A program made the translations under genes and the position numbers. Below, piece by piece: positions 3,829 to 53,152 of a stretch of DNA of 64,000 nt. The stretch covers positions 8,454 through 72,453 of the forward strand of contig JBDLTF010000004.1 in NCBI GenBank assembly GCA_039799225.1, written 5' to 3'. Position 1 is the first letter of the stretch. Each line of letters opens with the position of its first letter. The notes beneath the pieces were generated by a model. That model had not been told where the DNA came from, ran no database searches, and saw nothing but the letters and a program-made list of their open reading frames with translations. Source of the DNA: Candidatus Parcubacteria bacterium (lineage in GTDB: Bacteria > Patescibacteriota > Minisyncoccia > Phycocordibacterales > PALSA-1337).

Positions 3829-4803
3829 CTACAACGAGAAATTCTTGAGTGAGTAAATCTCCTCATTCTCTTCTTTGGCAGCCTCAGCAGGAGCACGATC
3901 ATCGACTGGTGCGGCGTCAGCAGCAGGAGCATCTGGCATCTGAACAGCCTCTTTCGAAACTGATGCTTCAGACTTCTGATTGTTCAATTTCTCAAGAAGA
4001 GTCCTGAGATCATCGGGACTGAAGAAATCAATCGTGACAGTACCTCCCTCCTTGGTTTTCTCGATACGCACGCGCGTGCCAAGAGTTTCGGTGAAGTTCT
4101 TCTCCATCTCAATCATCGTAGGGTCGAGATACTTGCCCTTATTGCGAATGCGCTCAGTGGCGACGCGGCGAGAAAGTGATTCTGCTTCACGGACAGTGAG
4201 CTTCTTGGACATGATCTCCTTGAAGAGCACAACCTGTTCATCAGGACGATCGGTCAACATCAAGAGTGGGCGAGTATGACCTTCTGAAATCTTACCTTCT
4301 TCGAGTGCAGTAATCATATCGTCTGGAAGAGCGAGGATACGCATACTGTTGGAAACATATTCACGGCTCTTACCCACCTTCTCAGCGATCTGAGCCTGCT
4401 TGAGTCCGAATTCTTTTGCGAGACGCTCGAATGAACGGGCACGGTCAACAGGATTGAGATCTTCGCGCTGGAGGTTCTCAATGATAGCCATCTCGAGCTT
4501 GAGCTGACTGTCCTGCTCTCCACTGCGGATGAGGACGGGTACCTGAGCGAGACCAGCGAGCTTGGATGCGCGGAGACGGCGCTCTCCTGAGACGAGCTCA
4601 TACTCGACGGTCATACCTCCTCCTTCATGGAACACTTCATTACGAGTCACGACAAGCGGCTGGAGCACGCCATACATGCGGATAGATTCTGACAAACTCT
4701 TGAGGGCTTCCTGGTCAAATTCGCGGCGCGGCTGATAAGGGTTGGGGCTCACCTTCTCGATCTCGACCCAGAAGATAGCATCGTTTACATAATTTGAAGA
4801 CAT
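3829..4803 (-). CDS. parB: ParB/Spo0J-family partition protein
   Basis: Conserved ParB N-domain (GERRLRASKLAG, VPVLIR), HTH region (QAQIAEKVGKSREYVSNSMRIL) and an acidic C-terminal tail. No parA is adjacent. Confidence 0.9.
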   Translation of the reverse strand: MSSNYVNDAIFWVEIEKVSPNPYQPRREFDQEALKSLSESIRMYGVLQPLVVTRNEVFHEGGGMTVEYELVSGERRLRASKLAGLAQVPVLIRSGEQDSQLKLEMAIIENLQREDLNPVDRARSFERLAKEFGLKQAQIAEKVGKSREYVSNSMRILALPDDMITALEEGKISEGHTRPLLMLTDRPDEQVVLFKEIMSKKLTVREAESLSRRVATERIRNKGKYLDPTMIEMEKNFTETLGTRVRIEKTKEGGTVTIDFFSPDDLRTLLEKLNNQKSEASVSKEAVQMPDAPAADAAPVDDRAPAEAAKEENEEIYSLKNFSL

Positions 4804-4851
4804 GCCCGTATTTTATCAGAGCGCAGCGATAATGAGAAATATCAGTGCCTG

Positions 4852-4879
4852 TTTGATTTCAGGCCGTTTTCGGGTAGAC
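4852..4879 (+). promoter_or_regulatory. sigma70-like promoter TTGATT-N16-TAGACT upstream of tRNA-Leu(CAA)
   Basis: Hexamers with 16-nt spacing end about 11 nt before the tRNA 5' end. Confidence 0.35.
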
Positions 4880-4890
4880 TGTCAGGTATC

Positions 4891-4975
4891 GCCGGGATGG
4901 CGGAATTGGTAGACGCACACGACTCAAAATCGTGCGGAGTAATCCATGGGAGTTCGATTCTCCCTCCCGGCACCA
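4891..4975 (+). tRNA. tRNA-Leu(CAA): tRNA-Leu(CAA), type II, CCA encoded
   Basis: Cloverleaf folded by hand: acceptor gccggga/tcccggc, anticodon loop cuCAAaa, long variable arm, T-arm gggag-ttcgatt-ctccc, discriminator A, CCA. Confidence 0.9.
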
Positions 4976-5136
4976 CAAAACAATAAGACTATCCGGAACT
5001 CAATGCCGGGAAGTGAGTCGCCTGCGCGACTCACGTGGGAGAATCGAAAAGGTTGAGCATATTTTCGAAGAGCTCTGCTCTGAGAAAATGCGAAACCTGT
5101 ACAGGTCCTGTAGGGACCGATTCCCTCCCGGCACCA
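4976..5136 (+). ncRNA. conserved tRNA-Leu 3'-trailer structured element, copy 1 (unclassified)
   Basis: About 160 nt directly after the tRNA. Hairpin 5013..5034 (gtgagtcgc-ctgc-gcgactcac) and hairpin 5062..5088. Conserved blocks CGAAAAGGYTGAGCAT and GCGAARCC. Ends with a second copy of the tRNA T-arm and acceptor 3' strand (cgattccctcccggcacca). A homolog with compensatory stem changes lies at 22508..22663. Confidence 0.4.
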
Positions 5137-5199
5137 CAAAACGAAATATAAAAAAGGACCGCCAAAGCGATCCTGTGAAAGGTTACGAGAATTCGAGCA

Positions 5200-5910
5200 T
5201 CACCGCACCGCAATACGTCCGATGACATTGTCAATCTCAACTTGAAGCGGGGTGACGAGCCAAAGCTGGCGATTCACTTCCCTGACCAAAGATCCAACGA
5301 ACTCCTTGAGACCCCACAACATGAACCAACCAATGAAACGATCTCTCTCAAAGAGAGGCCTCAAAAACTCAGGTGTGATTTCGACCAACCGATTACTGTT
5401 TGGTATCCACATATAGTTTCCCGTATTCGCAATGACCACCATGGCACCGACGTACCCTTCGAGCCCGGGGATTATCGAAGGGGGGACCACTGGATTAAAT
5501 TCGCGAGGATAAAAACTTGCAAATACTTTGATTTCTTCGCGCAACACCCCTTCAGGAAGCTCGGGCTGAGAATCATTCCGAGCATCTACCAACTGAGCTT
5601 CTTCAAGGGTCTTCGTGGGTACACGAAGGTGGTGCTCACATTTTGAATTAACATGCCCGAGCGCCCGCATGACGATCTGAGCCAAAACCTCTGCAGGGAT
5701 TTCAGTCAACTTTACCATATCCTTGCCATAGATTACCGTCGCGAGACGATATGTCTCATCATCCTCGAATCGCTTCAAATCAATCCGTTGCGGATGCAGC
5801 TCCTGAGCTCGACGCAACGTCGCACTCAACCTGAGTGCTCTCGGTGAAAATTCACCTGTGCCTTTCTCTACACCTTCGGGAGGTTTCGTTTCTTGATTCA
5901 TAGTTTTCAA
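5200..5910 (-). CDS. hypothetical protein (236 aa)
   Basis: Longest ORF in this interval. Chosen over the antisense 5242..5646 ORF. No recognisable motif. Confidence 0.45.
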   Translation of the reverse strand: MKTMNQETKPPEGVEKGTGEFSPRALRLSATLRRAQELHPQRIDLKRFEDDETYRLATVIYGKDMVKLTEIPAEVLAQIVMRALGHVNSKCEHHLRVPTKTLEEAQLVDARNDSQPELPEGVLREEIKVFASFYPREFNPVVPPSIIPGLEGYVGAMVVIANTGNYMWIPNSNRLVEITPEFLRPLFERDRFIGWFMLWGLKEFVGSLVREVNRQLWLVTPLQVEIDNVIGRIAVR

Positions 5911-20037: not shown

Positions 20038-20757
20038 CTACCACCCCTTAGCCTCCAACGCCTTCTCTGCTGCTTGCTGCTCTGCTTCCTGCTTGGACAT
20101 ACCCGTTCCTGCTGCGACTTGAACATCCCTAAGGAATACACCGAGAGTGAATTTCTTGTCATGATCAGGACCAACTTCTTTGAGTGTCTTATAGGTCGGC
20201 GTGATACCCATCTTCTCCTGTGCCTTCTCCTGGAAGCGACTCTTGGCATCGATCCAGAGCTTATCTTTCACAATGATATCGATGTCGATGTAATTCAAGA
20301 TCTGATCTGAAATGAACTGCGCAGCTGCATGATATCCCTGATCCATATAGATGGCACCGATGAGAGCCTCGACTGCATTTGCGAGAATGACCGAACGGGC
20401 ACGACCAGTATCTTTGGCCTCACCCTTCGAGAGGAGCATGAATTCATTGAGACCAATATGTTCAGCGACCTTCGTGAGACTGACGGTGTTCACGATAGCT
20501 GAACGATATGCGGTGAGCTCACCTTCTGCCTTGTGCGGATATTTCAAGAAGAGGAATCCGGTGACCGCCAACTCCAAAACAGCGTCTCCGAGAAATTCGA
20601 GGCGCTCATTGTGTTCCATGCCAGTACCCTTGTTCTCATTGAGGTACGAGCGATGTGTACATGCTGCACGGAGCAAGTTTACATCGTTGAATGAAACGCT
20701 GATCTTTTTCGAGAGTTTTTCGAGATTCTGTTGCATGTTACTTCTCCTCACTAACAA
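20038..20757 (-). CDS. rnc: ribonuclease III
   Basis: RNase III signature ERLEFLGDAVLE and a C-terminal dsRBD. The likely start is the internal Met near 20736, adjacent to the stop of the upstream gene. Confidence 0.9.
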   Translation of the reverse strand: MLVRRSNMQQNLEKLSKKISVSFNDVNLLRAACTHRSYLNENKGTGMEHNERLEFLGDAVLELAVTGFLFLKYPHKAEGELTAYRSAIVNTVSLTKVAEHIGLNEFMLLSKGEAKDTGRARSVILANAVEALIGAIYMDQGYHAAAQFISDQILNYIDIDIIVKDKLWIDAKSRFQEKAQEKMGITPTYKTLKEVGPDHDKKFTLGVFLRDVQVAAGTGMSKQEAEQQAAEKALEAKGW

Positions 20758-21643
20758 TCGTCACTGCTTTGGTAACTATCGGGAGGATATCATTATAGAA
20801 ATTGAGTTCGAGAATGTCGGCGAGCTTGAACCACTTAGCATCATCAAGTCCTGGCTTCTTCGCAAGAGCGAGGTCAGTAAACTTCGACTCTGCGAGATAG
20901 TAGTGAACCTGTTTCCTGATCTTACCAATCTCAGGATCGTTGGCAATATATTCATTCTGACCGAGGTCTTCCTTAATCTTCACATCGAGACCGATTTCTT
21001 CTTTGACTTTGGCGACGGTGCCATCCTTTGGATCCATATCCTGAGGGATTTTTCCCTTGGAAAGGGTCCAGTGGCCGAAAATGTCGTGCACGAAGGCAAA
21101 GAAGATATCAGACTCATGGCGCGCATATACGATGGCGCCTCCGAGATGCTGGACAGGCATCTGTTCATACGGGACCTCGGCAGGTTTCTTCTTCTTGGGA
21201 GCCTGTGGAGCGTCCTTACCTGGCTCACCAAGCTCCTTGTAGACCGCACCGAGCACACCGTTTACGAACCTACCCGATGTTTCGCCGCCGAATGTCTTGG
21301 CGAGCTCGATAGCTTCGTTGATAGCAACCTTGGCAGGAACCTCATCACGGTCAGAGAAGATGAGTTCGAAGAGACCGAGGCGGAGAACATTACGATCAAC
21401 CGGAGAAATCTTCTCGAGTGGCCAGTCAGGAGCGGCCTTGGTGATGATATCGTTGAGATCCTGCTTCTTGGCGATAATACCCTTCAAAAGGGCTTCTATG
21501 AATGAGACATCAGTCACACCTGGAGCAAATTCCTTGGCATTACGAGTAACAATGGCGGAAACGTTTTCGTCATGCTGTCCACGAGCATCCCACTCGAAGA
21601 GTGATTGGAGAACTACAGACCTTGAGAGGTGTCTATTTGCCAT
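20738..21643 (-). CDS. nusB: transcription antitermination factor NusB fused to a C-terminal Nudix-like domain
   Basis: NusB blocks (LQSLFEWD, NVLRLGLFEL, AINEAIELAKTFGGETSGRFVNGVLG). A Lys/Pro linker leads to a Nudix-fold-like region whose Nudix box (GKIPQDMDPKDGTVAKVKEEIGL) is only partly conserved. Confidence 0.7.
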   Translation of the reverse strand: MANRHLSRSVVLQSLFEWDARGQHDENVSAIVTRNAKEFAPGVTDVSFIEALLKGIIAKKQDLNDIITKAAPDWPLEKISPVDRNVLRLGLFELIFSDRDEVPAKVAINEAIELAKTFGGETSGRFVNGVLGAVYKELGEPGKDAPQAPKKKKPAEVPYEQMPVQHLGGAIVYARHESDIFFAFVHDIFGHWTLSKGKIPQDMDPKDGTVAKVKEEIGLDVKIKEDLGQNEYIANDPEIGKIRKQVHYYLAESKFTDLALAKKPGLDDAKWFKLADILELNFYNDILPIVTKAVTIVSEEK

Positions 21644-22425: not shown

Positions 22426-22507
22426 GCCGGGGTGGCGAAATTGGTAGACGCACGTGGCTTAGGACCACGCGGAGCAATCCTTGGAGGTTCGAGTCCTCTC
22501 CCCGGCA
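22426..22507 (+). tRNA. tRNA-Leu(TAG): tRNA-Leu(TAG), type II
   Basis: Acceptor gccgggg/ccccggc, anticodon loop cuUAGga, long variable arm, T-arm ggagg-ttcgagt-cctct. No CCA encoded. Confidence 0.85.
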
Positions 22508-22663
22508 CAAACGAACGAAGTGAGTTTTGTGTTGGGAGCAAAGCGCCTGCGCGCTTTGCGAGAGAGGACTCGAAAAGGCTGAGCATGTTTTCTCGGAGCA
22601 AGCTCCGAGAAAACGCGAAGCCTATACCGCGCCTGTAAGGCGAGAGTCCTCTCCCCGGCCACA
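22508..22663 (+). ncRNA. conserved tRNA-Leu 3'-trailer structured element, copy 2 (unclassified)
   Basis: Homolog of 4976..5136. Hairpin 22537..22558 (gcaaagcgc-ctgc-gcgctttgc) and hairpin 22587..22612 (ttttctcggagc-aa-gctccgagaaaa). Same conserved blocks. Ends with a copy of this tRNA's own 3' end (gagtcctctccccggc). Confidence 0.4.
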
Positions 22664-42951: not shown

Positions 42952-43950
42952 ATGTTCCACAAGAAGCTCGACCTCATCGCCATTGGCGACATAACCACCG
43001 ACGCGTTTATTCGCCTCAAGGAAGCAGAAGTTCACTGCAAGATAGACCATGGAGCATGCGAGATCTGCATGCCATTCGGTGACAAGATTCCCTTCGAATA
43101 TGCAAAAGTTGTCAAAGGTGTTGGTAATGCCGCCAATGCCGCTGTCGCTGGCGCACGCCTCGGACTCAATTCCGCCCTCATAGCCAACATCGGTGACGAC
43201 CAGAATGGCCGTGAATGTAGACTCGAGCTCCAGAAGAATGATGTTATCGAAACATATGTGAAGACGAACAAGGGTAAAGCGACGAACTACCACTTCGTGC
43301 TCTGGTACGGCGATGAACGTACTATCCTCGTCAATCACGTGGATTATGATTACGAGCTCCCTAAGAAACTTCCTGCACCCAAGTGGCTCTACCTCACATC
43401 GATGGCTTCGAACACATTCCCGTACCACATGGCCATCGCTGACTATATAGAAGCAAACCCTGATACACGTCTCGCATTCCAGCCAGGAACATTCCAGATG
43501 AAGCTCGGATTCGATGAGCTCAAGCGTATCTACGCACGCACTGATATCTTCATCGTCAACGTCGAGGAAGCTCAGCGTATGCTCAAAACCGATAACAGAG
43601 ACGTCAAAGAGCTGATGAAAAAGCTCCATAGCTATGGCCCTAAGCTCATTCTCGTCACCGATGGACCGAAGGGTGCCTACATGTTCGATGGTGATCACTA
43701 TTACTTCATGCCGATATATCCGGATCCGAAGCCTCCGATAGAGCGCACTGGCTGTGGAGATGCATTTGCTTCAACATTCGTCTGTGCACTCGCAAAAGGA
43801 AAATCACCCCTTGAGGCTCTTACCTACGCTCCAGTCAATCCGATGTCAGTCGCGCAGTTCGTCGGTGCACAAGAAGGTCTCCTCACTGATCAGCAGATCG
43901 AATGGTGGCTCAAGCAAGCCCCAAACGACTATCGTGCTCGCGAAATCTAG
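42952..43950 (+). CDS. PfkB-family carbohydrate kinase (ribokinase-like)
   Basis: PfkB signature 2 (RTGCGDAFASTF) and the N-terminal GG-type motif. 332 aa. Confidence 0.8.
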   Translation: MFHKKLDLIAIGDITTDAFIRLKEAEVHCKIDHGACEICMPFGDKIPFEYAKVVKGVGNAANAAVAGARLGLNSALIANIGDDQNGRECRLELQKNDVIETYVKTNKGKATNYHFVLWYGDERTILVNHVDYDYELPKKLPAPKWLYLTSMASNTFPYHMAIADYIEANPDTRLAFQPGTFQMKLGFDELKRIYARTDIFIVNVEEAQRMLKTDNRDVKELMKKLHSYGPKLILVTDGPKGAYMFDGDHYYFMPIYPDPKPPIERTGCGDAFASTFVCALAKGKSPLEALTYAPVNPMSVAQFVGAQEGLLTDQQIEWWLKQAPNDYRAREI

Positions 43951-45134
43951 CTTCGTGACTTTTTGAATTCTTCCCAAGTACCATCAACAATGGCTTTTCG
44001 TGCGTCTTTCGCGAGATGCACCAGGAAGTAGAGATTGTGAATCGATACGAGCGTCGCAGCAAACATTTCCTTGGCCCTGAAAAGGTGTGCGAGATACGCC
44101 TTTGTGTAATTTGTACAGGTATAACAACCACATCCTGCATCTATCGGTGCAAAATCTGTCTTGAATTCTGAATTGAGGAGATTGATTGTTGATTTTCCCT
44201 TACTTCGTACGTAAGCAGAACCGTTACGTGCAATCCTCGTCGGTGCAACACAGTCGAAGGTATCGATACCATTCTCAATACCGAGTATAAGATCCTCTGG
44301 TGCACCGATGCCAAGCAAGTGACGTGGCTTACCCTCGGGTAATTCATCGACGACCCAACCGACCGCGATAGCGATATCTTCTTTGTCGAACGAACCACCG
44401 ATACCGAAACCATCGAAGTCCATACCGCCAATCGTACGTGCGCTTTCTTTTCTCAAATCTTCATGCCGACCACCTTGGACAATGCCGAACAATGCGCGAT
44501 TCCCCTCTTTATTCATTTTTTTGTGAGCCTCGAGACTTCTACCTGCCCAACGATGCGTGCGATCCATAGCTTCTCTCTGATATTCATATGAAGCCTGCGG
44601 TGAAGTACATTCGTCAAAAGCGAAAATGATATCTGCAGCGATTGCATGCTGTATTTCAATAGATCTCTCTGGTGTAAAGAAATGTGTGCTTCCATCAAGC
44701 ACTGATCTAAACTCGACACCGTCTTCAGTAACCTTGGCAAAATTCTCGCCATGGGTCTCTTCTGCTTCTTTTTCAACTTCGCGACCACCGCGCGCACCAA
44801 TCTTGGACGCAGTCTTGTTGAACGCCGCACCAAGTGAGAATGCCTGGAAACCTCCGGAATCAGTAAATGTAGGTCCTGGCCAATTCATGAACTTCCCGAG
44901 TCCACCAGCTTTCGTAAGTATTTCAGTCCCTGGTTGGAGATAGAGATGATAGGTATTGGCGAGAATGGCGTCTGCACCGAGCGTTTTGACCTGCTCAGGA
45001 GCGAGTGACTTCACCGTCGCCTTGGTACCTACAGGTATGAATGCTGGTGTCTCAATAGCGCCATGAGGAGTCTGGATGGTGCCTGCGCGGCCACGACCGT
45101 TGGGGAGCTTCGCGTGAATATCGAATTTGAGCAT
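43947..45134 (-). CDS. tgt: queuine tRNA-ribosyltransferase
   Basis: MLKFDIHAKLPNGRGRAGTIQTPHGAIETPAFIPVGT is the typical TGT N-terminus, plus the C-terminal zinc site (CGCYTC...H). The ORF-track start (45188, GTG) is an artefact of the inverted repeat. Confidence 0.9.
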   Translation of the reverse strand: MLKFDIHAKLPNGRGRAGTIQTPHGAIETPAFIPVGTKATVKSLAPEQVKTLGADAILANTYHLYLQPGTEILTKAGGLGKFMNWPGPTFTDSGGFQAFSLGAAFNKTASKIGARGGREVEKEAEETHGENFAKVTEDGVEFRSVLDGSTHFFTPERSIEIQHAIAADIIFAFDECTSPQASYEYQREAMDRTHRWAGRSLEAHKKMNKEGNRALFGIVQGGRHEDLRKESARTIGGMDFDGFGIGGSFDKEDIAIAVGWVVDELPEGKPRHLLGIGAPEDLILGIENGIDTFDCVAPTRIARNGSAYVRSKGKSTINLLNSEFKTDFAPIDAGCGCYTCTNYTKAYLAHLFRAKEMFAATLVSIHNLYFLVHLAKDARKAIVDGTWEEFKKSRS

Positions 45135-46129: not shown

Positions 46130-49100
46130 TTAGATAAGATAATTCTCAACAACCCAACCTATTATTCCGTTGAAAGTAACATACCACCAATAATAACCTC
46201 CGGCTGAAACACCATTTGAGGCATTTGCAACAATTGTACCTAAGGTACCATCAACAACGGTGCCCAAAACAGTAGCTGTTGCCGACGGAGCAGAGCGGAT
46301 ATTTAAGAATGTTCCTGTTCCAGAAACTCGAACCTGTTGACCAGTAGTGAAAGCACCTTGGCTTTGGGATGACGAGGTTGATGGAACAGTGACCATGGAG
46401 ACGGTAGCTGGGGCTGTAGCACCACTGACGATAGATCCGTAATCATTCGGATAGCATGTTGTTGCGCTGAATGTGCCACTATTATTCAGACTACGTGATT
46501 CCCAACAAAGCTGGGCTGGAGACTTATTAACCTTACCTGCAGCGTCGCCAGTGCCACCAGAAACATCAGGACCAATAAGTGGCCATGGAACTGAAACTGG
46601 GAACCAGGAAGGTTTGGAACTATAAATCATAGAAGCAGGAATTGTCTGGTTTGATGGTACCGCTACATCAGAGGAAACCTCAGAAGCGACGAAACGTGAG
46701 GCATCATTGAAGTAGTCATAGTTACCCCAACGAACCAAGGTAGAGCTAACCTTAGGATCAGGATAGCCGCTAGGAATTGCGTAGTTATCGTACGCAGTAG
46801 TACTACAATTGCTGATGTTTGGGTATCCGAACTGATAAACACCAGGGGCGTTACAGCCAGTAGCATATGCTGCAGGATTCTGTTGTGAAGACCCGAGCAC
46901 GTTACCAACGATGTTGTAGTAGTAGCCGAAGCGCTTGATCCAGACAGCATCTCCCCTTGCAGTCGAACCATTCGGATTGAAGCCGGTGAAATAGTTGCGC
47001 AACAGAGTTCCTTGACCCGCACCACCGAAGTAACCATCCATACCCCACATCTCACCAGTGTTTCCTTCGTAAAGGTTATAAGCATTATACGGAGCATGGC
47101 CATCATCAAAGGTCCAAGTCACCATATATGAACCACCTCCCCAATCGACTGATCCATAAACATAGTTGTAGCCAATATAGAGACCACTGCTACTATTATT
47201 AACTTCAATTGCGGGGAAGTTCTTATTGAAGATATTATTCTCAACCCTCGCATTGCTATTGGCACCGTACGGACCACCGTAGAAGTTGAGACCGCTGTTA
47301 TTAGGTCCTGATGAGCCTTCGTGGATATATGAATCACGAACCTCAAGGTTAACAGTGCCGAGAATAGTGAAGTGGTAGCCGACGCTGCGACCTGATTCGA
47401 TACCCTTCATCCAACAGCTATCACAGTACTGAATGTCCGTGTTGCCGTTTGTAGTGTTGTGTTCAAGCTTGAGATCTTCAATACCGACATTCTTTGTAGT
47501 GCTCAGGAATGTATGTTTGATTTTCGGAGTGCCTTGAGAGAAATCAAAGATGAGCGGATTGCGAACAGTGATGGTATTCCCGCTAATCCCGGTAATGACA
47601 TTAACTTGAGTGAGTGAACGGCCAGCATCGTGACTAGCAACAAAGGTAGGATCATCGAGACGATCGAGCTCGAGCATCAATCCGACAGTGAGACCTGCAG
47701 TCGATGCGACAGTGAAGGACGAAGATCCTTTGGCACCACCTCCGGTAAGTGCTACGCCACTTGTCGAATTGTATCCGCTACCAATCCTAAGAATGTTACC
47801 ACCTGACAGAATAGTCTTGTCTGCTCCCGCACCACGGAGAGTAACATTACTGTTGTAAATCAGGATCTTGTCAGACAAGTTGTATGTGCCGGCATTGAGA
47901 AAGACGACGCCATTGTTACATGAGCTGATAGCACTGTTGATTGTTGCTGCGGTTGCCCCAGGATTGAGTGTGGCACAAATAGTAGTACGGTTTGGGATGC
48001 CTCCAGGAACACCGGTGTATTTCCAGTCGATGGTACGGTTAGCAGCTTGAAGAGAACTCAGAATATTAGTGCCGACAACAATCGTCACCGTCACACTCGC
48101 ACTCTTGCTCGTCGATACATTTCCTGCGGCATCCTTAGCCCAAGCATAGAGAGTCTTGGAGCCTGCGGATGCAAAGGTGTATGTAGTAGGAGCAGCTGAT
48201 GTCCAACCTGTAGCTGATGCTGTTGGTGCTGATGATGACTCGGTAATGAGGTATCCTGTTACACCGACTGCGTCTGTAGCAGTGAGAGTAGTGATAGGAA
48301 CTGTGAGAGATGATGAAGTTGAAGGGATGGTGAAGACTGAGACGACTGGGGCGGTGGTGTCGGAAGTTGGGATGGTGCCACCATAGTAGCAGGCGGACGA
48401 GTCGAATATCCCTCCTCCTGCGAGATTTTGGTTCTCGAAGCATTCTTGTGCAGGAATCTTTCCATTCAAGAGCGTCCCCGGATTGCTTGCGCTCGGACCA
48501 TACGCTGGCCAAGCAAGTCCACTTCTCCACCATGAAGGACGAGATGCTAGATAAAGCGAGTTAGGAATGTTCTTTGATGCATCTATTGTGTCCGGACGCT
48601 CAGCAACGTTCCATCTCACCGTGTTGGTCACAGAATCCCAATTACCCCACCTGAGCAGAGTATTCAAGGTTTGAATGTCATAATTCGATGTCGAAGGCTG
48701 TGCTGCATTCCAATATCCAATCGAATAAATCACATTATCACTTCCTAGATTGGTATTGTTAAACTCATATGTGCTCGTCTTTCCCGTGGTCCCCAGCACA
48801 TTACCGACGACAGTAGTGTTTAGGTGTTGTGCCCAGACATACAGCGCAATCCTGTAGGCAAAAACTGATGTATTTGTCGAATCATATCCATAGAGCCTAT
48901 TCCTCAATATAACCTCGTTACCTCCAGAACCCCAGCCGTTGTCCAACGAGATCGAGGTAAGAGCATTCCCTTCGTACAGGTTCGAATATGTGTGTCCGAC
49001 ATGAGGCTGTGCTCCAGCAGCCATAACGTTAGGCTCCGACTGCGGGTCGATGTAGTTATACGAGATCACTGAGCCGCTAACTGGAGTAGTCGGAACGATC

Positions 49101-52100
49101 TGCCATCCATTATTCATAATATTGTTCTCGATAAGATACGCCGAGCCTGAACCGAGCTCTATACCATAATGAGTAGGTCCTGCGCCGACAGAATCATGAA
49201 TATAACTGTCTCGAATCTCTCCTCTGTACGAGTACCAGCCGAAGTTCACAGCAGACCTCACGTGTCCGATTGTTTCGACGCCTTTTACCCAGCAGTTTGT
49301 ACAGAAATTGAAGGCAATGAGATCGCTCGCGGTGCCATTCTGCCCGTCAACTTTCAAGTTCTCGATGCCGGCATATTCCATATTCCCATTTGTCCAGGTG
49401 AATACTTGTGGAGACAGACTCGACTTGAACGTGAAGTAGAGCGGATTGTCCAAAGTGATAGTGTTCCCATTTATAGCTTTGATCTTCACGACCTGGAATT
49501 GTATCCTCGTGTTTCCACCATAGAATGATGTGCCATTCCTAACATTTGATTGAGTGCCATATGAGCCTGTCGGACTGACCTTCAAAGAAGTATCGTTCAA
49601 CTGATCGATGACAATCGTCTGATTCACTTTGAAAGCGGCCGGGACACTCGCGAGAGTAATGTTTGTACTTCCCTTCGTATATCCTCCCACAACATCGACG
49701 ACGGACAGAGAGCCTCCATCGCCACCTCCGTACGGCGAAAACTTTATAGAACTACCAACTTTGAGAATTGTCGATGCTCCTTCTCCTCGCAACACTACTG
49801 GTCGTGTGATGGATAGTCCATTTGAAAATGTATATGTTCCAGCAGGGATACGTATCACCGTCCTCAGAGGACAGTTACTTATCGCTGTCTGAATCGATGC
49901 CGCGTTTCCTGCGGTGACCGTATTCGTGGTGCAGTTAGCTAGGTTTGGTATTCCTTTGGTTCCATCTGATCCGATCACTCCCGCTTGCGTCCAATCGGTC
50001 GTACGATCGGCAGGTATTGCTTCAGCGCTTCCTGTCACAACCGTCACTGTCACACTTGCACTCTTGCTCGTCGATACATTTCCTGCAGTATCCTTAGCCC
50101 AAGCATAGAGAGTCTTGGAACCTGCAGATGTGAAGGTATATGTAGTAGGAGCAGCTGATGTCCAACCTGTAGCTGATGCTGTTGGTGCTGATGATGACTC
50201 GGTAATGAGGTATCCTGTTACACCGACTGCGTCTGTAGCAGTGAGAGTAGTGATAGGAACTGTGAGAGATGATGAAGTTGAAGGGATGGTGAAGACTGAG
50301 ACGACTGGGGCGGTGGTGTCGATGACCGTACCCGCCTGTGTCGTAGCCGATGCTCCTGCAGAGACTGCAGAGAGGTTACCTGCAGCGTCATATGCGCGAA
50401 CAGTGTAGGTATATGAGGTGCTTGGTGACAAACCAGTAGTGTTCTGGAAGGTTGTAGCTGCTGGGGTGATATTTGCGATCTGAACACCAGCTCTGAAGAC
50501 CTGATATCCTGTTACACCGACGTTGTCAGATGAAGCGCTCCATGAAAGATTGATTTGTGATGAAGAGACTGCGGTGGCGGTGAGGTTTGCGGGAATGGTA
50601 GGTGCGCTGGTGTCAGTGACAACAGTAGTGTTGAAGATTGCATTGACGCTTGTGTTTGCATTCAAAGTGAACGAACAAGTTGTTGCAGTACCAGTACATG
50701 CACCTGACCATCCTGCGAAGGTTGATCCAGCTGAAGCTGCAGCAGTCAATGTGACTGCCTGACCTGCGTTCCCTGTTGAAGTACAGGTGGTTCCGCAGTT
50801 GATTGAACCAGTCGAGGTGACTGTACCTGTGCCGGTTCCTGACTTGGTGACGGAGACGGTGTATGAAGTCTGAGTAGGTGGAGTGACCGAGCTATAAAGT
50901 GAGCTAACTTCAGCTGCGCTCAATGCACCATTGTATACGCGAACTTCATCAATCTTACCCTTGAAATATTCCGATGAGCCGTTCCATGAGCCTATGAGGA
51001 GGTTCGACGCAGTGTTGGTGAATGCACCAGCACCTGATGTGACAAGAGCTCCATCTATATATAGACGGTTAGTGGTTCCATCATATGTCTGGACGACGTG
51101 TTTCCAGACGCCTGAGGCGATAGGAGTTTGTATGACATTGGACCATGTTGAACCATTACCGACACTGGCGTACACTGTATTATTATTTCTAATTTCGAGA
51201 CCGAAAGAGTACTCTTTCATGATTATAGAACCCCATTCTCCTGCCTGAGTTGCGGAGAGATTGATCCATGCACTGAGAGAGAACTTCGCTGAACCAACGT
51301 TTCCAGCATTCAAATATGCACTGGTACCATTGAGTGTAAGACCATTGCCTGCTACACCCGTTGTCCATGTAGGACCACCAACGAGGGTGGCGGTACCAGA
51401 GTTTCCTGATGAATCAGTAGCGGTTGTACCTGAACTCTGGTTGAGGTTCCAGTTACGAAGAAGAGCTGTACCTGCTGGTGCTGCAGCGACTGTTACCGGA
51501 ACAGCGCTCGAAGTAGTAACTGCCCCGTCATTGTCGGTAGCACGTGCAGTGATGCTATATGTTCCTGCGGCTACACCAGTCCATGTATATACATACGGGA
51601 ATGAAGCGTCTGCACCGATAAGTGTTGATCCGCTGTAGAATTCAACATTAGTAATTGATCCATCAGAGTCAGTTGCAGTGACAGGAATGTAAAGAGCTGC
51701 TGCAGGAGCCGTTCCAGAGACAGATATAGTGCTTAGAGTGACCGCAGGAGCAACATTCGCCAGGGTCGTAACCGTCCTTCCAGATGTCTGTGCTGAATGA
51801 TTCCCTGCGGCGTCATATGCGTCGACGGTATATGTATATGATGTTCCCTTCGTGAGGCCGCTGTCATTGAATGAAGTATTAGTAACTGCTCTTATCGGTG
51901 TTCCATTGCGGAATACACGATATCCGGTGACTGCAACGTTATCCGTTGAGGCTGCCCACGAAAGAGTGAGTGATGTCTGTGTGACATTTATAACGTTCAT
52001 GTACGTTGGTATCGTAGGAGCGGTGACATCTGGAGGAGTTACTGTTGTAAATGTGTAGTTACCTGATGTAGTGAGGTTTCCTGCTGCATCACGAGACAAT

Positions 52101-53152
52101 ATCCTATAGTTGTAGAGTGTTCCTCCGGTAAGGCCCGAGAGTGACTGACTGCGAGAAGTTGCTCTTTGGGAGGGAGTAGTGACTGTGCTGTTACCGTACG
52201 AAGTAGTCAATCCATATTCGACATAATCATTAGAAGCTTCACTGGTGGTCCAGGAAACTGTAGCTCCTGTTTGAGAAATATTTGAAGCAGATACCGATGA
52301 GATTGTAGGAGCTGTGGTATCTGATGGAGGAGTGACTATGACGCTTGAAGGAAGCATCTCAAAATATGCATGTGCAATCTGTGCTCCTGATGTCGGAGCG
52401 GTAGTATTGAGAGTAACCGATGTGCCCGCACTGCTCGAAACTTTATTGCGTTGGATGATGGCGTAGCTATCTTGTCCTGATATATCATATGGATCACTTA
52501 CAGATTGTCCTGATCCTGGTACAGGAATTCCTGCCTGCTTCCAATCTGCAGTGACCATCCATCCCCATGATTGATCTCTCGTCGATGTATATGAATTATT
52601 AACTGTACCAGAGACTCCCCTGCCTCCACCGATTGCGCCTATTGGTTTTGCAGCATCAGCACCGGTGACAACAAGCACCTTGAGCATCGCATACCGTGTA
52701 CTCGGATTAGTCGACTGTTGAACCACGCTCACTCTTATCGGATCTGACGCAGTCACTGGTGCTGTATACACATAGACCAAAGTGTCATCTGTATTCACAG
52801 TCCCGTATTGAGCTCTCTGCGTATAAGTATTTACCCCGAGATTGTCTGTCACTGAAGAAATACTGTTGGGCTGGCCCACATTGGAGTTGGTAGCGATGAT
52901 AACATAGAGCATCGAGCCTGCCGGAGGAGTGAAGGAAGCCGTTCTCAAAATCTCCGCATTGCCCTTAACCGTTGCCGGTGTTGAACGATCAATCGTCAAA
53001 TTTCCCGCAGAAGCTACCTGTGCAACCTGCGAAATCGGCGCAACGATGGTGAGCGGTGAACTCGGCGATGCATTGAACACGATATAGCCGAGTGACAGAG
53101 CCGTTACGCAGAGCGCGACGACTGCAAGACCTACTGCTGGGAAACTCTTCAT
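46130..53152 (-). CDS. giant secreted surface protein (2340 aa): signal peptide, Fn3 repeats, LamG/ConA-like lectin domain, two Ig-like plus right-handed beta-helix modules, C-terminal SH3b-like domain
   Basis: Signal peptide MKSFPAVGLAVVALCVTALSLG. Fn3 modules with the DN.GV.GY.V.R motif. LamG block GTSAYLNAGN...WKHVVQTYDG...GKIDEVRVYN. Parallel beta-helix repeats (IENNIMNNG, VENNIFNKN, GYNYV). C-terminal ...GGYYWWYVTFNGIIGWVVENYLI. Confidence 0.85.
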   Translation of the reverse strand: MKSFPAVGLAVVALCVTALSLGYIVFNASPSSPLTIVAPISQVAQVASAGNLTIDRSTPATVKGNAEILRTASFTPPAGSMLYVIIATNSNVGQPNSISSVTDNLGVNTYTQRAQYGTVNTDDTLVYVYTAPVTASDPIRVSVVQQSTNPSTRYAMLKVLVVTGADAAKPIGAIGGGRGVSGTVNNSYTSTRDQSWGWMVTADWKQAGIPVPGSGQSVSDPYDISGQDSYAIIQRNKVSSSAGTSVTLNTTAPTSGAQIAHAYFEMLPSSVIVTPPSDTTAPTISSVSASNISQTGATVSWTTSEASNDYVEYGLTTSYGNSTVTTPSQRATSRSQSLSGLTGGTLYNYRILSRDAAGNLTTSGNYTFTTVTPPDVTAPTIPTYMNVINVTQTSLTLSWAASTDNVAVTGYRVFRNGTPIRAVTNTSFNDSGLTKGTSYTYTVDAYDAAGNHSAQTSGRTVTTLANVAPAVTLSTISVSGTAPAAALYIPVTATDSDGSITNVEFYSGSTLIGADASFPYVYTWTGVAAGTYSITARATDNDGAVTTSSAVPVTVAAAPAGTALLRNWNLNQSSGTTATDSSGNSGTATLVGGPTWTTGVAGNGLTLNGTSAYLNAGNVGSAKFSLSAWINLSATQAGEWGSIIMKEYSFGLEIRNNNTVYASVGNGSTWSNVIQTPIASGVWKHVVQTYDGTTNRLYIDGALVTSGAGAFTNTASNLLIGSWNGSSEYFKGKIDEVRVYNGALSAAEVSSLYSSVTPPTQTSYTVSVTKSGTGTGTVTSTGSINCGTTCTSTGNAGQAVTLTAAASAGSTFAGWSGACTGTATTCSFTLNANTSVNAIFNTTVVTDTSAPTIPANLTATAVSSSQINLSWSASSDNVGVTGYQVFRAGVQIANITPAATTFQNTTGLSPSTSYTYTVRAYDAAGNLSAVSAGASATTQAGTVIDTTAPVVSVFTIPSTSSSLTVPITTLTATDAVGVTGYLITESSSAPTASATGWTSAAPTTYTFTSAGSKTLYAWAKDTAGNVSTSKSASVTVTVVTGSAEAIPADRTTDWTQAGVIGSDGTKGIPNLANCTTNTVTAGNAASIQTAISNCPLRTVIRIPAGTYTFSNGLSITRPVVLRGEGASTILKVGSSIKFSPYGGGDGGSLSVVDVVGGYTKGSTNITLASVPAAFKVNQTIVIDQLNDTSLKVSPTGSYGTQSNVRNGTSFYGGNTRIQFQVVKIKAINGNTITLDNPLYFTFKSSLSPQVFTWTNGNMEYAGIENLKVDGQNGTASDLIAFNFCTNCWVKGVETIGHVRSAVNFGWYSYRGEIRDSYIHDSVGAGPTHYGIELGSGSAYLIENNIMNNGWQIVPTTPVSGSVISYNYIDPQSEPNVMAAGAQPHVGHTYSNLYEGNALTSISLDNGWGSGGNEVILRNRLYGYDSTNTSVFAYRIALYVWAQHLNTTVVGNVLGTTGKTSTYEFNNTNLGSDNVIYSIGYWNAAQPSTSNYDIQTLNTLLRWGNWDSVTNTVRWNVAERPDTIDASKNIPNSLYLASRPSWWRSGLAWPAYGPSASNPGTLLNGKIPAQECFENQNLAGGGIFDSSACYYGGTIPTSDTTAPVVSVFTIPSTSSSLTVPITTLTATDAVGVTGYLITESSSAPTASATGWTSAAPTTYTFASAGSKTLYAWAKDAAGNVSTSKSASVTVTIVVGTNILSSLQAANRTIDWKYTGVPGGIPNRTTICATLNPGATAATINSAISSCNNGVVFLNAGTYNLSDKILIYNSNVTLRGAGADKTILSGGNILRIGSGYNSTSGVALTGGGAKGSSSFTVASTAGLTVGLMLELDRLDDPTFVASHDAGRSLTQVNVITGISGNTITVRNPLIFDFSQGTPKIKHTFLSTTKNVGIEDLKLEHNTTNGNTDIQYCDSCWMKGIESGRSVGYHFTILGTVNLEVRDSYIHEGSSGPNNSGLNFYGGPYGANSNARVENNIFNKNFPAIEVNNSSSGLYIGYNYVYGSVDWGGGSYMVTWTFDDGHAPYNAYNLYEGNTGEMWGMDGYFGGAGQGTLLRNYFTGFNPNGSTARGDAVWIKRFGYYYNIVGNVLGSSQQNPAAYATGCNAPGVYQFGYPNISNCSTTAYDNYAIPSGYPDPKVSSTLVRWGNYDYFNDASRFVASEVSSDVAVPSNQTIPASMIYSSKPSWFPVSVPWPLIGPDVSGGTGDAAGKVNKSPAQLCWESRSLNNSGTFSATTCYPNDYGSIVSGATAPATVSMVTVPSTSSSQSQGAFTTGQQVRVSGTGTFLNIRSAPSATATVLGTVVDGTLGTIVANASNGVSAGGYYWWYVTFNGIIGWVVENYLI
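48135..48420 (-). repeat. intragenic near-identical ~290-bp repeat, copy 1 (Ig-like module of the giant protein)
   Basis: Encodes TTAPVVSVFTIPSTSSSLTVPITTLTATDAVGVTGYLITESSSAPTASATGWTSAAPTTYTF.SAGSKTLYAWAKD.AGNVSTSKSASVTVT. The identical antisense shadow ORF MEPADAKVYVV... appears at both copies. Confidence 0.85.
50115..50410 (-). repeat. intragenic near-identical ~290-bp repeat, copy 2
   Basis: Same peptide block as 48135..48420 with only a few substitutions. Confidence 0.85.

Follow-up and report, generated by a model that had tools for sequence, protein, structure and literature searches.

A highly structured non-coding insertion of about 140 nt is located directly behind tRNA and tmRNA genes of Patescibacteria (CPR bacteria), carries both an antisense and a sense copy of the 3' end of that tRNA, and looks like an undescribed kind of small site-specific mobile element. 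We identified it in a stretch of 64,000 nt from Candidatus Parcubacteria bacterium (GCA_039799225.1, contig JBDLTF010000004.1), hereinafter the window, where both tRNA-Leu genes are followed by homologous elements ending in a copy of the tRNA 3' part (Table 1). It had been noted in a first-pass annotation that the 3' end of tRNA-Leu(CAA) is repeated behind a conserved structured element with a homologue after tRNA-Leu(TAG), and this observation proved to be real. The accompanying interpretation was only partly supported, as detailed below.

Table 1. Features of the two window copies and their target genes (all on the + strand; tRNA positions in standard numbering).
Feature	Coordinates	Description	Support
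tRNA-Leu(CAA)	4891..4975	Intact; target gene of copy 1. T-loop T54-T60 = 4953-4959; positions 61-73 = 4960-4972; encoded CCA = 4973-4975	ARAGORN; Rfam tRNA, 58.3 bits; identical in relatives L072 and L075, which lack the element
Copy 1, linker	4976..5003	Variable region between the tRNA 3' end and the antisense segment. In other copies it holds a GAGCGAAGCGAG-type hairpin cap or a terminator-like hairpin; in stand-alone copies 1-2 kb or more of accessory genes lie between the tRNA (where one is seen) and the element	
Copy 1, P1 5' strand	5004..5011	TGCCGGGA; exact complement of tRNA positions 66-73	0 mismatches
Copy 1, hairpin P2	5013..5034	GTGAGTCGC-CTGC-GCGACTCAC; inserted exactly at the 66'/65' junction of the antisense tRNA segment	All 5 modelled pairs covary
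Copy 1, P3 5' strand	5037..5048	GGGAGAATCGAA; exact complement of tRNA positions 54-65 (T-loop plus T-stem 3' strand)	0 mismatches; across the family perfect in 21 of 30 copies, at most 1 mismatch in 28 of 30
Copy 1, conserved core	5049..5118	P4 is AGGTT/AACCT; a tandem G·A pair (5055-5056 with 5092-5093) joins it to the P5 hairpin (5057-5091); J4/6 junction is GTACA; P6 hairpin (5104-5118) has a loop containing GUA	Folding, covariation
Copy 1, direct repeat	5119..5142	Repeat of tRNA positions 57-76 plus 6 nt of trailer; lacks 2 nt (TC) relative to the tRNA; forms the 3' strands of P3 and P1	Repeat comparison
tRNA-Leu(TAG)	22426..22508	Intact; target gene of copy 2. T54 = 22488, G57 = 22491, A73 = 22507	ARAGORN; Rfam; locus empty in relatives L076-L079
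Copy 2, linker hairpin and P1 5' strand	22509..22538	Linker hairpin (loop CGAACGAAGTGAG) and P1 5' strand (TTTTGTGTTGGGAG), complementary to tRNA positions 64-72 plus the trailer CACAAA, with two G·T pairs and one deletion	Same linker and P1 idiosyncrasies in loci L086 and L114
Copy 2, hairpin P2	22538..22559	GCAAAGCGC-CTGC-GCGCTTTGC	Folding, covariation
Copy 2, P3 5' strand	22563..22574	AGAGGACTCGAA; exact complement of tRNA positions 54-65; has A where the tRNA 5' strand has G49 of a G·U pair	Antisense-arm scoring
Copy 2, conserved core	22575..22643	P4, tandem G·A, P5 (22583-22616), J4/6 and P6	Folding, covariation
Copy 2, direct repeat	22644..22662	Repeat of tRNA positions 57-73 with one extra C; followed by the promoter of the downstream gene, which in empty-site relatives lies directly after the tRNA	Repeat comparison; empty-site loci

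In copy 1 an exact 21-nt repeat, TCCCTCCCGGCACCACAAAAC, occurs at 4961-4981 and again at 5122-5142, while the full repeat starts at G57 of the T-loop (4956 and 5119). In copy 2 an exact 16-nt repeat, GAGTCCTCTCCCCGGC, occurs at 22491-22506 and 22644-22659. The two intervening sequences are homologous, with 82% column identity including the tRNAs, and both score about 117-121 bits (E about 1e-32) against a covariance model of the family. The compensatory differences between the P2 and P5 hairpins of the two copies, reported in the first-pass annotation, were correct, and the blocks CGAAAAGGYUGAGCAU and GCGAARCC, described there as conserved, are invariant across 79 distinct family members. Both copies fold far better than shuffled sequences (z = -6.3 and -6.8). 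The element was also said to be absent after the Lys, Tyr, Trp and Ser tRNAs, which holds for the window but not for the family, as other genomes carry it behind all four. Finally, the segment gccggga in copy 1 had been taken for the tRNA 5' acceptor heptamer, but it is better described as the Watson-Crick complement of the 3' strand, since in copy 2 and in the tRNA-Ala copies this strand differs from the tRNA 5' strand exactly where the tRNA has a G·U pair.

To define the family, we searched with a covariance model (R1) and found 94 copies (79 distinct) scoring at least 68 bits, almost all of them in Patescibacteria. Of these, 73, counting identical duplicates, lie 4-46 nt downstream of a same-strand tRNA or tmRNA gene, covering about 20 tRNA species. 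The targets are tRNAs for Ala, Arg, Cys, Glu, Gly, His, Ile, Leu, Lys, Ser, Trp, Tyr and Val, and tmRNA; hence the suggestion that the element targets tRNA-Leu in particular was not supported. A scan of viral contigs with the core pattern gave no hits. Each copy has the same order: a linker, an antisense copy of the acceptor 3' strand, the constant hairpin P2, an antisense copy of the T-stem 3' strand plus the T-loop, the conserved core P4-P6, and a direct repeat of the tRNA from G57 onward. The acceptor-like and T-arm-like helices close a tRNA-like junction, as had been proposed.

The secondary structure is supported by very strong covariation: 96% of cells pair, 25 of 30 pairs show changes on both sides, and the covariation score is 0.632 against 0.168 for shuffles (0 of 500 reach it), while slid controls pair at only 30-44%. 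At the same time, the constant helices contain 1600 Watson-Crick pairs, 10 G·U pairs (0.6%) and 13 A·C mismatches, so that G·U pairs are no commoner than A·C and about ten times rarer than in tRNAs from the same loci (6.2%). About 40% of the genome-scan copies, as counted by eye, have a terminator-like hairpin between the tRNA and the element. Thus, the earlier conclusion that covariation points to a functional RNA goes too far, as both facts fit a DNA-level hairpin structure at least as well, although the low G·U content is indirect evidence only. The hairpins are capped by GCGAAGC or GCGTAGC with tandem G·A, and d(GCGAAGC) is an exceptionally stable DNA mini-hairpin; on the other hand, tandem G·A pairs and purine-rich junctions are also typical of RNA.

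The comparison of orthologous tRNA-Leu loci in relatives, suggested beforehand as a test for insertion, showed that the element is an insertion with duplication of the tRNA 3' end. For ParB, relatives were collected by a homologue search followed by contig look-ups. Four of four relatives (ParB 82-90% identical) have tRNA-Leu(CAA) without the element, and four of four relatives (NusB 83-93% identical) have tRNA-Lys and tRNA-Leu(TAG) without it. The position of the downstream gene's promoter in copy 2 is as expected if the downstream repeat is the host's original 3' end.

The antisense arm follows the upstream tRNA rather than the downstream repeat. Over 30 copies, the antisense P3 strand matches the upstream tRNA perfectly in 21, while the downstream repeat is perfect in only 17. 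Where the two tRNA 3' copies differ (window copy 1 and loci L020, L021, L023, L047, L052), the antisense arm matches the upstream one. It extends into the complement of the upstream trailer, not of the downstream flank, and the arms reach 18-23 perfect base pairs as scored, and longer by eye in L028, although the simple ungapped scoring mis-scores some copies that contain indels. The left end of the repeat is fixed in the T-loop, whereas the right end varies. Tandem arrays occur in L001, L086 and L119, and decayed copies and 3' remnants, in L037, L058, L083 and L116.

No known RNA family corresponds to the element, in agreement with the first-pass annotation. A search of the whole window against Rfam 15 at gathering thresholds, including group I/II intron, HDV-like, hammerhead, twister, tmRNA and tRNA-like families, yielded only five tRNAs; the region 4800-5300 at E up to 10 yielded the tRNA, an antisense-tRNA artefact and noise below 14 bits; and seven related loci yielded tRNAs only. 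Literature searches by topic and by the conserved sequence strings found no description. Group I introns reported in Patescibacteria tRNAs lie at position 35/36 of the anticodon loop (PMC13011429) and are unrelated; TIGR-Tas was considered and does not fit. Similarly, no recombinase, HUH transposase, integrase or reverse transcriptase gene was found next to any copy or in the window ORFs that were scanned. All-against-all clustering of 557 ORFs from 36 loci revealed only housekeeping synteny, and Pfam scans of flanks, "cargo" and multi-copy loci revealed no recombinase. A large serine recombinase in L019 and L001 is not linked to the element, and the minimal copies have no ORF.

The analysis itself establishes that the two window elements belong to a widespread, previously undescribed family of small, protein-free insertion elements of about 135-160 nt, specific for the 3' end of tRNA and tmRNA genes in Patescibacteria, and that both were acquired after the window's lineage split from close relatives. 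What follows on the mechanism, including the free form, the strand exchange and the enzyme, is our best reading but an inference, to which we assign a probability of roughly 0.45. In this view, each copy is the integrated form of a small hairpin or "dumbbell" element. In the free, circular, single-stranded form, one arm would be a sense copy of the tRNA from G57 to the 3' end plus a few trailer bases, pairing with the antisense arm (the P1 and P3 5' strands) into a duplex that mimics the double-stranded 3' part of the target gene. The linker hairpin would cap one end of this stem and the core P4-P6, the other, with P2 as a side branch placed exactly where the D and anticodon arms leave a tRNA. 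A single strand exchange in the T-loop, between positions 56 and 57, would then give exactly the observed order: tRNA(1-56), the element-supplied 57-76 plus trailer, the linker, the antisense arm with P2, the core, and finally the host's own 57-76 and flank. The tRNA would stay intact, and the displaced host 3' end would become the downstream repeat, free to decay. For window copy 1, the predicted circle junction would be GGGACC followed by GATTCTCCCTCCCGGCACCACAAAACAATAAGAC, with the TC that the downstream repeat lacks and continuing into the upstream-type linker. The permuted free form is predicted to fold as single-stranded DNA with z = -8.3 and -10.2.

Several facts speak against this model. 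The recombinase or transposase would have to act in trans, and none was identified among the proteins scanned; no free circular form or excision junction has been observed. The model does not explain how the two arms are re-matched when a new tRNA species is colonised, as copies in one genome share a core type but differ completely in their arms. Copies with the longest perfect upstream palindromes tend to have a downstream repeat whose acceptor part is strongly mutated, which the model explains only by later decay. L005 and L021, from one metagenome-assembled genome, have a 91-nt identical core but different P2 stems and arms, which looks like gene conversion rather than transposition. Finally, in the window no + strand terminator separates the tRNA from the element, and hence the two are probably co-transcribed here.

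The main alternative, which we consider unlikely but which remains a rival, is a functional tRNA-like small RNA, also raised in the first-pass annotation as an RNase P/Z-processed product. P1 (7 bp) stacked on the first 5 bp of P3, with P2 branching where nucleotides 8-48 leave a tRNA, would mimic the acceptor/T-arm minihelix; RNase P and the 3' processing and CCA-adding enzymes would release a stable RNA of about 135 nt with the function residing in the core, the copies of the tRNA 3' end being a by-product of how the gene arose. Indeed, P2 sits exactly at the acceptor/T-stem junction in all copies, the structure covaries strongly, the unpaired purine-rich blocks and the tandem G·A are invariant, the 3' tail after P1 begins with the discriminator base (in copy 1, with ACCA), the P6 loop CUGUAAG has the Y-U-NNN-R layout of an anticodon loop, and co-transcription is probable in the window. 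However, the scarcity of G·U pairs and the frequent terminator-like hairpins speak against this reading. In many copies the downstream acceptor strand has decayed, so P1 cannot form, yet the antisense strand is kept; the antisense arm pairs perfectly with the upstream tRNA and trailer for up to 23 bp or more, which in RNA would unfold the tRNA; the patchy distribution among close relatives means that the element is not essential; and the mimicry does not need local sequence, yet local sequence is always used. A ribozyme or intron attached to the tRNA, including the suggested T-loop intron-like insert, is very unlikely. HDV-like theta ribozymes also lie immediately 3' of phage tRNAs (PMC10879173), and the core is compact with invariant junction nucleotides, but no ribozyme or intron family matches even at E up to 10, the fold is fully nested and lacks the double pseudoknot of HDV-like ribozymes, the upstream tRNAs are complete cloverleaves, so nothing needs to be spliced, and the hammerhead-like UGA...GAAA (UGA...CGAAAC) lacks N7-G8-A9. 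A K-turn or box C/D reading of the tandem G·A was rejected, as the internal loop is a symmetric 2x2 loop with no 3-nt bulge.

Two further explanations seem improbable. The element could be a relic or satellite of integrase-type genomic islands, the structured segment being the attR-proximal end, such as an element-encoded small RNA or arm-site region, left after deletion of the cargo. The identity block from the T-loop to just past the 3' end of tRNA and tmRNA genes matches the T-loop sublocation class of integrase att sites, as reportedly defined by Williams 2002, and stand-alone copies lie downstream of accessory or defence genes (L101, AbiU2; L109, Schlafen/AlbA_2; L055, DUF4238 plus a UvrD-like helicase; L005, a nucleotidyltransferase; L058, an S24 peptidase; L110, a methyltransferase). 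However, no integrase was seen in any locus; about 73 of 94 copies are minimal and share the same precise architecture, unlike random deletion relics; one core serving about 20 tRNA targets cannot be explained by protein-only site recognition; and the antisense arms have no role. In L101 and L112 a partial old tRNA 3' end still precedes the linker, and hence the "cargo" is a later, independent island inserted at the same tRNA, not part of an autonomous version of the element. Alternatively, a reverse transcriptase could recognise a tRNA-like 3' end and make hybrid cDNAs by switching template to (pre-)tRNA, with integration by homologous recombination, as the Neurospora Mauriceville retroplasmid is reported to do (Chiang et al. 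1994). The tRNA-like helix with a 3' tail, the fixed 3' and variable 5' junctions, tRNA homology on both sides, and antisense segments that in some copies continue perfectly from a terminator hairpin, as snap-back synthesis would produce, are consistent with this. However, no CCA appears at the tRNA-linker junction where the gene lacks it (copy 2 and most other copies), on which ground a mature-tRNA retro-copy was also rejected; the repeats include unprocessed trailer; P2 interrupts the antisense copy, which simple copying does not give; G·U avoidance argues against an RNA-level structure; no reverse transcriptase gene was seen nearby, and a survey of complete genomes detected no group II introns in Patescibacteria (PMC13011429). 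A pseudo-tRNA origin, by duplication of a tRNA with replacement of its arms, was rejected, as the 5' strands are Watson-Crick complements of the 3' strands, with A opposite U70 in the tRNA-Ala copies and A49 in copy 2, and extend into the complement of the discriminator, the trailer and the T-loop.

Among known systems, the logic resembles the folded single-stranded attP of CTXphi and other Xer-exploiting integrative elements (IMEX), where two inverted copies of the target site, about 90 nt apart, fold into a hairpin mimicking the double-stranded chromosomal target, a single strand exchange plus replication integrates the element, the inverted arm, the loop and a hybrid site lie at one end of the integrated form, tandem arrays are common, and no integrase is encoded next to the site. 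Here, the corresponding hairpin is formed by the antisense arm with the sense copy of positions 57-76, but the target is clearly not dif, the arms differ from copy to copy, the whole element is only about 150 nt with no phage genome, and P2 and a conserved three-way core are added. IS200/IS605 ends, their non-autonomous derivatives (PATEs) and REPINs with RAYT enzymes are likewise small, protein-free and hairpin-rich; they are mobilised in trans as single-stranded DNA, insert next to a defined sequence, and have cleavage sites recognised by base pairing with guide bases next to the foot of a subterminal hairpin. In our element, the P1 5' strand lies directly 5' of the foot of P2 and pairs with the flanking target, and the P3 5' strand pairs with the element's 3' tip, over 8 + 12 nt or more compared to 4 nt in IS608. 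IS200/IS605 elements make no target duplication and carry no copy of the target, whereas here the target 3' part is present twice, and no Y1_Tnp domain was found in the proteins scanned, which did not cover whole genomes. Integron attC sites are structured single-stranded recombination sites (about 60-140 nt) conserved in structure rather than sequence, with covarying stems that avoid wobble pairs and extrahelical features marking one strand, but they are simple imperfect hairpins flanking gene cassettes, recombine with attI, and have neither a link to tRNA nor a conserved core. Integrase-type islands of the T-loop att class use the same target genes, leave the same type of direct repeat and regenerate the tRNA, but here there is no integrase or cargo, while antisense arms and a structured core shared across many targets are present in about 150 nt. 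Viral TLS, the tmRNA tRNA-like domain, the E. coli tyrT distal repeats with the tRNA-Tyr 3' end, and theta ribozymes have an acceptor/T-arm-like coaxial helix with a 3' tail, a position directly 3' of a tRNA, or a duplicated tRNA 3' end; in our case, the helix is built from the complement of the neighbouring tRNA's 3' strand, avoids G·U pairs and has no pseudoknotted ribozyme fold. The element does not fit a MITE, which has terminal inverted repeats of fixed sequence plus a short fixed-length target-site duplication: the inverted segments are copies of the local target that differ at every site, and the repeat is 9 to about 35 nt long with a variable right end.

A more far-reaching possibility, which we regard as doubtful, is that the element is a self-contained, nucleic-acid-guided insertion module, with two antisense segments flanking a scaffold hairpin, which would specify the 3' part of any tRNA or tmRNA gene by base pairing and would be re-templated from the new target at each colonisation. 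If so, it is a naturally programmable, protein-gene-free mobile element using a host or distant trans-acting enzyme, and its free form, about 160-190 nt, could be the smallest known circular hairpin replicon.

Being invisible to Rfam, the element could be mistaken in annotation for a pseudo-tRNA or an att relic. If the RNA reading is right, it represents a new, abundant class of tRNA-scaffolded small RNA. If, however, the mobile-element reading is right, CPR bacteria carry a widespread family of very small, protein-free mobile elements that home to tRNA and tmRNA genes by presenting a folded copy of the target itself, one conserved scaffold being adapted to about 20 different targets. That would extend hairpin-att or guide-pairing recombination, known from CTXphi, attC and IS200/IS605, to tRNA genes, and would imply an unidentified recombinase with programmable, homology-defined specificity. 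In that case, the family offers a structural explanation for why tRNA 3' ends are insertion hot-spots in these reduced genomes, and provides a new marker for genome plasticity in Patescibacteria.

Two tRNA-Leu genes of the window, tRNA-Leu(CAA) and tRNA-Leu(TAG), are each followed by a homologous segment of about 140 nt (82% column identity including the tRNAs), and both segments end in a copy of the tRNA 3' part that begins in the T-loop. In copy 1, behind tRNA-Leu(CAA), the repeat begins at G57 and the downstream copy lacks 2 nt, whereas copy 2, behind tRNA-Leu(TAG), contains an exact 16-mer (see the table). The two copies fold alike and far better than shuffled sequence (z = -6.3 and -6.8), and no Rfam family matches them, even at E up to 10. 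The observation made in the first-pass annotation therefore held, and the hairpins and conserved blocks it described are correct. Its interpretation was only partly supported, since the family turned out not to be specific for Leu, contrary to the suggestion of a tRNA-Leu-targeting element.

Coordinates of the features in the window and in other loci (L followed by a number denotes a retrieved locus)
Sequence	Position	Strand	Feature
Window	4891-4975		tRNA-Leu(CAA)
Window	4956 and 5119		Copy 1, start of the repeat at G57
Window	4961-4981 and 5122-5142		Copy 1, exact 21-mer
Window	5108-5114		Copy 1, P6 loop
Window	5155-5174	-	Terminator hairpin of the convergent gene downstream of copy 1
Window	20738-21643	-	NusB domain fused to a NUDIX hydrolase domain, 301 aa
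Window	22426-22508		tRNA-Leu(TAG)
Window	22491-22506 and 22644-22659		Copy 2, exact 16-mer
Window	22512-22524		Copy 2, hairpin-cap module in the linker
Window	22633-22639		Copy 2, P6 loop
Window	43947-45134	-	tRNA-guanine transglycosylase (TGT)
Window	46130-53152 and 53811-63626	-	Two giant ORFs of 2340 and 3271 aa
L013	1-230		Array with a unit lacking P1 and P2
L060	940-1095	-	Insert with a different or strongly divergent core
L072	2160-2190		Terminator hairpin in the empty-site relative
L079; L077	L079: 1231-1869; L077: 3436-3825 and 4589-4978		LAGLIDADG-type gene; two genes of the 23S_rRNA_IVP / bAvd-like family
L094	6973-7140	+	Insert with a different or strongly divergent core
L094	8822-8990	-	Insert with a different or strongly divergent core
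L119	5143-5291	-	Insert with a different or strongly divergent core
L125	521-666	-	Insert with a different or strongly divergent core

To find further copies, we scanned one genome per species for CGAAAAGGNTGAGCA...GCGAANCC, which gave 71 loci. About 40 of these hold true copies, nearly all in Patescibacteria genomes labelled Saccharibacteria, Paceibacterota or Taylorbacteria, and the rest are chance matches inside coding sequence. A covariance model (R1) was built from 32 copies; with a metagenome scan added, it finds 94 copies scoring 68-147 bits, of which 79 are distinct, while a scan of viral contigs found none. Where the upstream sequence is present, the element lies 4-46 nt downstream of a gene on the same strand, and these genes are tRNAs for Ala, Arg, Cys, Glu, Gly, His, Ile, Leu, Lys, Ser, Trp, Tyr and Val (about 20 anticodon species) and tmRNA. 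In four loci (L080, L124, L100 and L090) the gene upstream of the element ends in a T-arm and acceptor strand (GTAGGTTCGAATCCTACCCGCGGAGC) but is called neither tRNA nor tmRNA by ARAGORN; it is probably a divergent or cut-off tmRNA gene. Several genomes hold three or more copies. The window itself is from a Patescibacteria genome: its ParB is 100% identical to a protein listed by NCBI under a 'Candidatus' metagenome-assembled genome, and the nearest named homologues are from Patescibacteria, Pacebacteria and Taylorbacteria.

Every copy has the same order of parts. The tRNA 3' end and a short trailer 'a' are followed by a variable linker, often a hairpin capped by GAGCGAAGCGAG or GAACGAAGTGAG, or a terminator-like hairpin; then come the P1 5' strand, which is the complement of positions 66-73 and often of 'a', a constant hairpin, P2, and the P3 5' strand, which is the exact complement of positions 54-65, for example GGGAGAATCGAA. 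Next is a core with P4 (GGYU/ARCC), a tandem G·A, a variable P5, the junction UGUAC, and P6 with a loop containing GUA, and the element ends in a direct repeat of the tRNA from G57 onward. P2 sits exactly where the D and anticodon arms leave a tRNA, hence P1 plus the first 5 bp of P3 copy the acceptor/T-arm stack. The 5' strands are complements of the 3' strands, not copies of the tRNA 5' strands: they have A opposite U70 in the tRNA-Ala copies and A49 in window copy 2, and they continue into the complement of the trailer and the T-loop.

The 12-nt P3 strand matches the upstream tRNA perfectly in 21 of 30 copies and with at most 1 mismatch in 28 of 30, whereas the downstream repeat (57-65) is perfect in only 17 of 30, and P1 is perfect in 8 of 30. 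Where the two sense copies differ, the antisense arm agrees with the upstream one. The P1 stem extends at least 3 bp into the upstream trailer in 12 of 35 scorable copies and at least 8 bp in 6; it reaches 23 bp in locus L032, and reading by eye gives about 29 bp in L028. All of these pairs are Watson-Crick.

For the 79 distinct sequences, we observed that 96% of cells form standard pairs and that 25 of 30 pairs show changes on both sides. The covariation score is 0.632 against 0.168 for shuffles (0 of 500 reach it), and structures with the 3' partner slid by 1-3 columns pair at only 30-44%. Variant cores keep the architecture with fully compensated P4 stems, GGUU/AACC becoming CCCU/AGGG or ACUUU/AAAGU (loci L119, L125 and L094). 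In L060, L094, L119 and L125 other insert types use the same frame, that is, an antisense T-arm strand ending in AATCGAA, then an insert, then CGATT plus the T-stem 3' strand, but their cores are different or strongly divergent. In L119, tandem units share identical P1-P2-P3 5' segments but carry different cores, suggesting a superfamily, or swapping of cores by gene conversion. Locus L013 contains an array in which a unit lacks P1 and P2 altogether and has only the P3 5' strand, the core, P6 and the 57-65 repeat, and a third copy of the repeat follows, preceded by a GAACGAAGTGAG-type hairpin. The minimal unit may therefore be just the core closed by P3.

The conserved structure has, however, an odd signature. 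The constant helices (P2, P4/P5, P6) contain 1600 Watson-Crick pairs but only 10 G·U, against 13 A·C, while stems of 86 distinct tRNAs from the same loci contain 6.2% G·U. The hairpin caps are GCGAAGC or GCGTAGC, and d(GCGAAGC) is an unusually stable DNA mini-hairpin. Long perfect palindromes are centred on terminator-like hairpins, and such a hairpin lies between the tRNA and the element in about 40% of the genome-scan copies by our count. Together, these observations suggest that the structure is selected, or generated, at the DNA level rather than only in an RNA of one polarity, although in the window itself no + strand terminator separates the tRNA from the element, and so co-transcription is likely here. 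A small hairpin-cap module recurs at the tip of P5 and in the linker loop of many copies, for example in window copy 2 and in L001, L023, L060 and L061. It reads GA-GC-GAA-GC-GA, or ACGAAGT or GCGTAGC (a triloop on 2 bp flanked by tandem G·A), and in L005 and L042 it also occurs in the opposite orientation downstream of the repeat; it may be an independent mini-insert or a protein or primase site. The invariant P6 loop C-U-G-U-A-A/G-G has the U33-G34-U35 layout that TGT recognises in anticodon loops, and the genome encodes TGT, but the variant loop CCGUAGG breaks this motif, so the match may be coincidence.

Orthologous loci were fetched using ParB and NusB homologues. The parB / tRNA-Leu(CAA) / orf / miaA locus of four relatives (ParB 82-90% identical) has the tRNA but no element, and in two of them the tRNA is identical to that of the window. 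The nusB / tRNA-Lys / tRNA-Leu(TAG) locus of four relatives (NusB 83-93% identical) is likewise empty. In the case of copy 2, the promoter of the downstream gene directly follows the tRNA in the relatives, whereas in the window it follows the downstream repeat. The convergent gene downstream of copy 1 ends in a terminator hairpin that is conserved in position in the empty-site relative (locus L072), which helps to anchor the original flank. Thus, the element is an insertion. Other signs of a mobile, decaying family are tandem arrays (L001, L086, L119), 3' remnants (L037, L058), copies next to degenerate tRNA ends (L083, L116), and at least three different linker types behind tRNA-Leu(TAG) in different organisms, one of them shared by the window, L086 and L114.

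Stand-alone copies lie downstream of accessory or defence genes (AbiU2, Schlafen-like, DUF4238 with a helicase, a nucleotidyltransferase, an S24 peptidase, a methyltransferase). In L101 and L112 a partial old tRNA 3' end still precedes the linker, so those genes belong to later islands inserted at the same tRNA. No recombinase, transposase or reverse transcriptase was found beside any copy or in the window ORFs that were scanned. In relatives of the window (L079 and L077), a LAGLIDADG-type gene, identified by a weak Pfam hit, lies between tRNA-Lys and tRNA-Leu(TAG), and two genes of the 23S_rRNA_IVP / bAvd-like family flank the RNase III gene; regions around tRNA genes in these genomes are general hot-spots for selfish DNA. 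Elsewhere in the window, the fusion of a NusB domain with a NUDIX hydrolase domain is conserved, being at least 77% identical among the 120 listed hits, in homologues whose named members are all Patescibacteria or Paceibacterota, and the two giant ORFs fill the last 18 kb.

While the family, its architecture and its insertion behind tRNA genes follow from the sequence comparisons, the mechanism that we consider most likely, including any free form and the strand exchange, is inferred and remains tentative. The order sense, linker, antisense, core, sense is what results when a small single-stranded circle is opened at one point and inserted into the tRNA gene. In that circle, a sense arm (57-76 plus 'a') would pair with an antisense arm to form a stem capped by the linker at one end and by the core at the other, and the circle would be opened at the P6|G57 junction and joined into the tRNA gene at 56|57 by a single strand exchange. 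This reading would account for the fixed left boundary in the T-loop, the intact tRNA, the antisense arm matching the upstream copy and its trailer rather than the downstream flank, the decay of the downstream, in this view host-derived, repeat, the tandem arrays, the avoidance of G·U pairs, and the absence of an adjacent enzyme gene. The permuted form corresponding to the predicted circle folds as DNA with z = -8.3 and -10.2. The reading does not, however, account for the enzyme or for how both arms would become matched to a new tRNA. It also does not explain why L005 and L021, from one metagenome-assembled genome, share a 91-nt identical core but differ in P2 and in their arms, which looks like gene conversion between copies, or why copies with the longest palindromes have the most mutated downstream acceptor segment. 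The logic is that of the folded attP of CTXphi, of attC sites, and of the guide-to-cleavage-site pairing at IS200/IS605 ends.

Of the alternatives, a tRNA-like small RNA processed by RNase P and RNase Z is the strongest, although we consider it unlikely: it fits the exact tRNA-like geometry and the invariant junctions, but fits poorly with the G·U deficit, the intervening terminator-like hairpins, the decayed P1 partners and the patchy distribution. Less likely still is a relic of an integrase-type island, which does not explain the uniform minimal architecture, the antisense arms, or one core serving many targets. A retroelement with a tRNA-like end seems about as doubtful, being weakened by the absence of CCA at junctions, by trailer sequence in the repeats, and by P2 interrupting the antisense copy. 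A ribozyme or intron is very improbable, as it has no model or fold support and the tRNA is complete.

There is no Rfam family for the element, and literature searches by topic and for the conserved sequence strings found no paper describing it. In the sequences scanned, it fails at least one defining test each of integrase islands, of IS200/IS605 elements, of MITEs, of introns and of known tRNA-like RNAs. It shares a working principle with folded-hairpin att sites, and we class it, for the present, as a previously undescribed hairpin-site integrative element. There is nevertheless a substantial chance that it is something categorically new, namely a programmable, protein-free insertion module or a new class of tRNA-scaffolded RNA.
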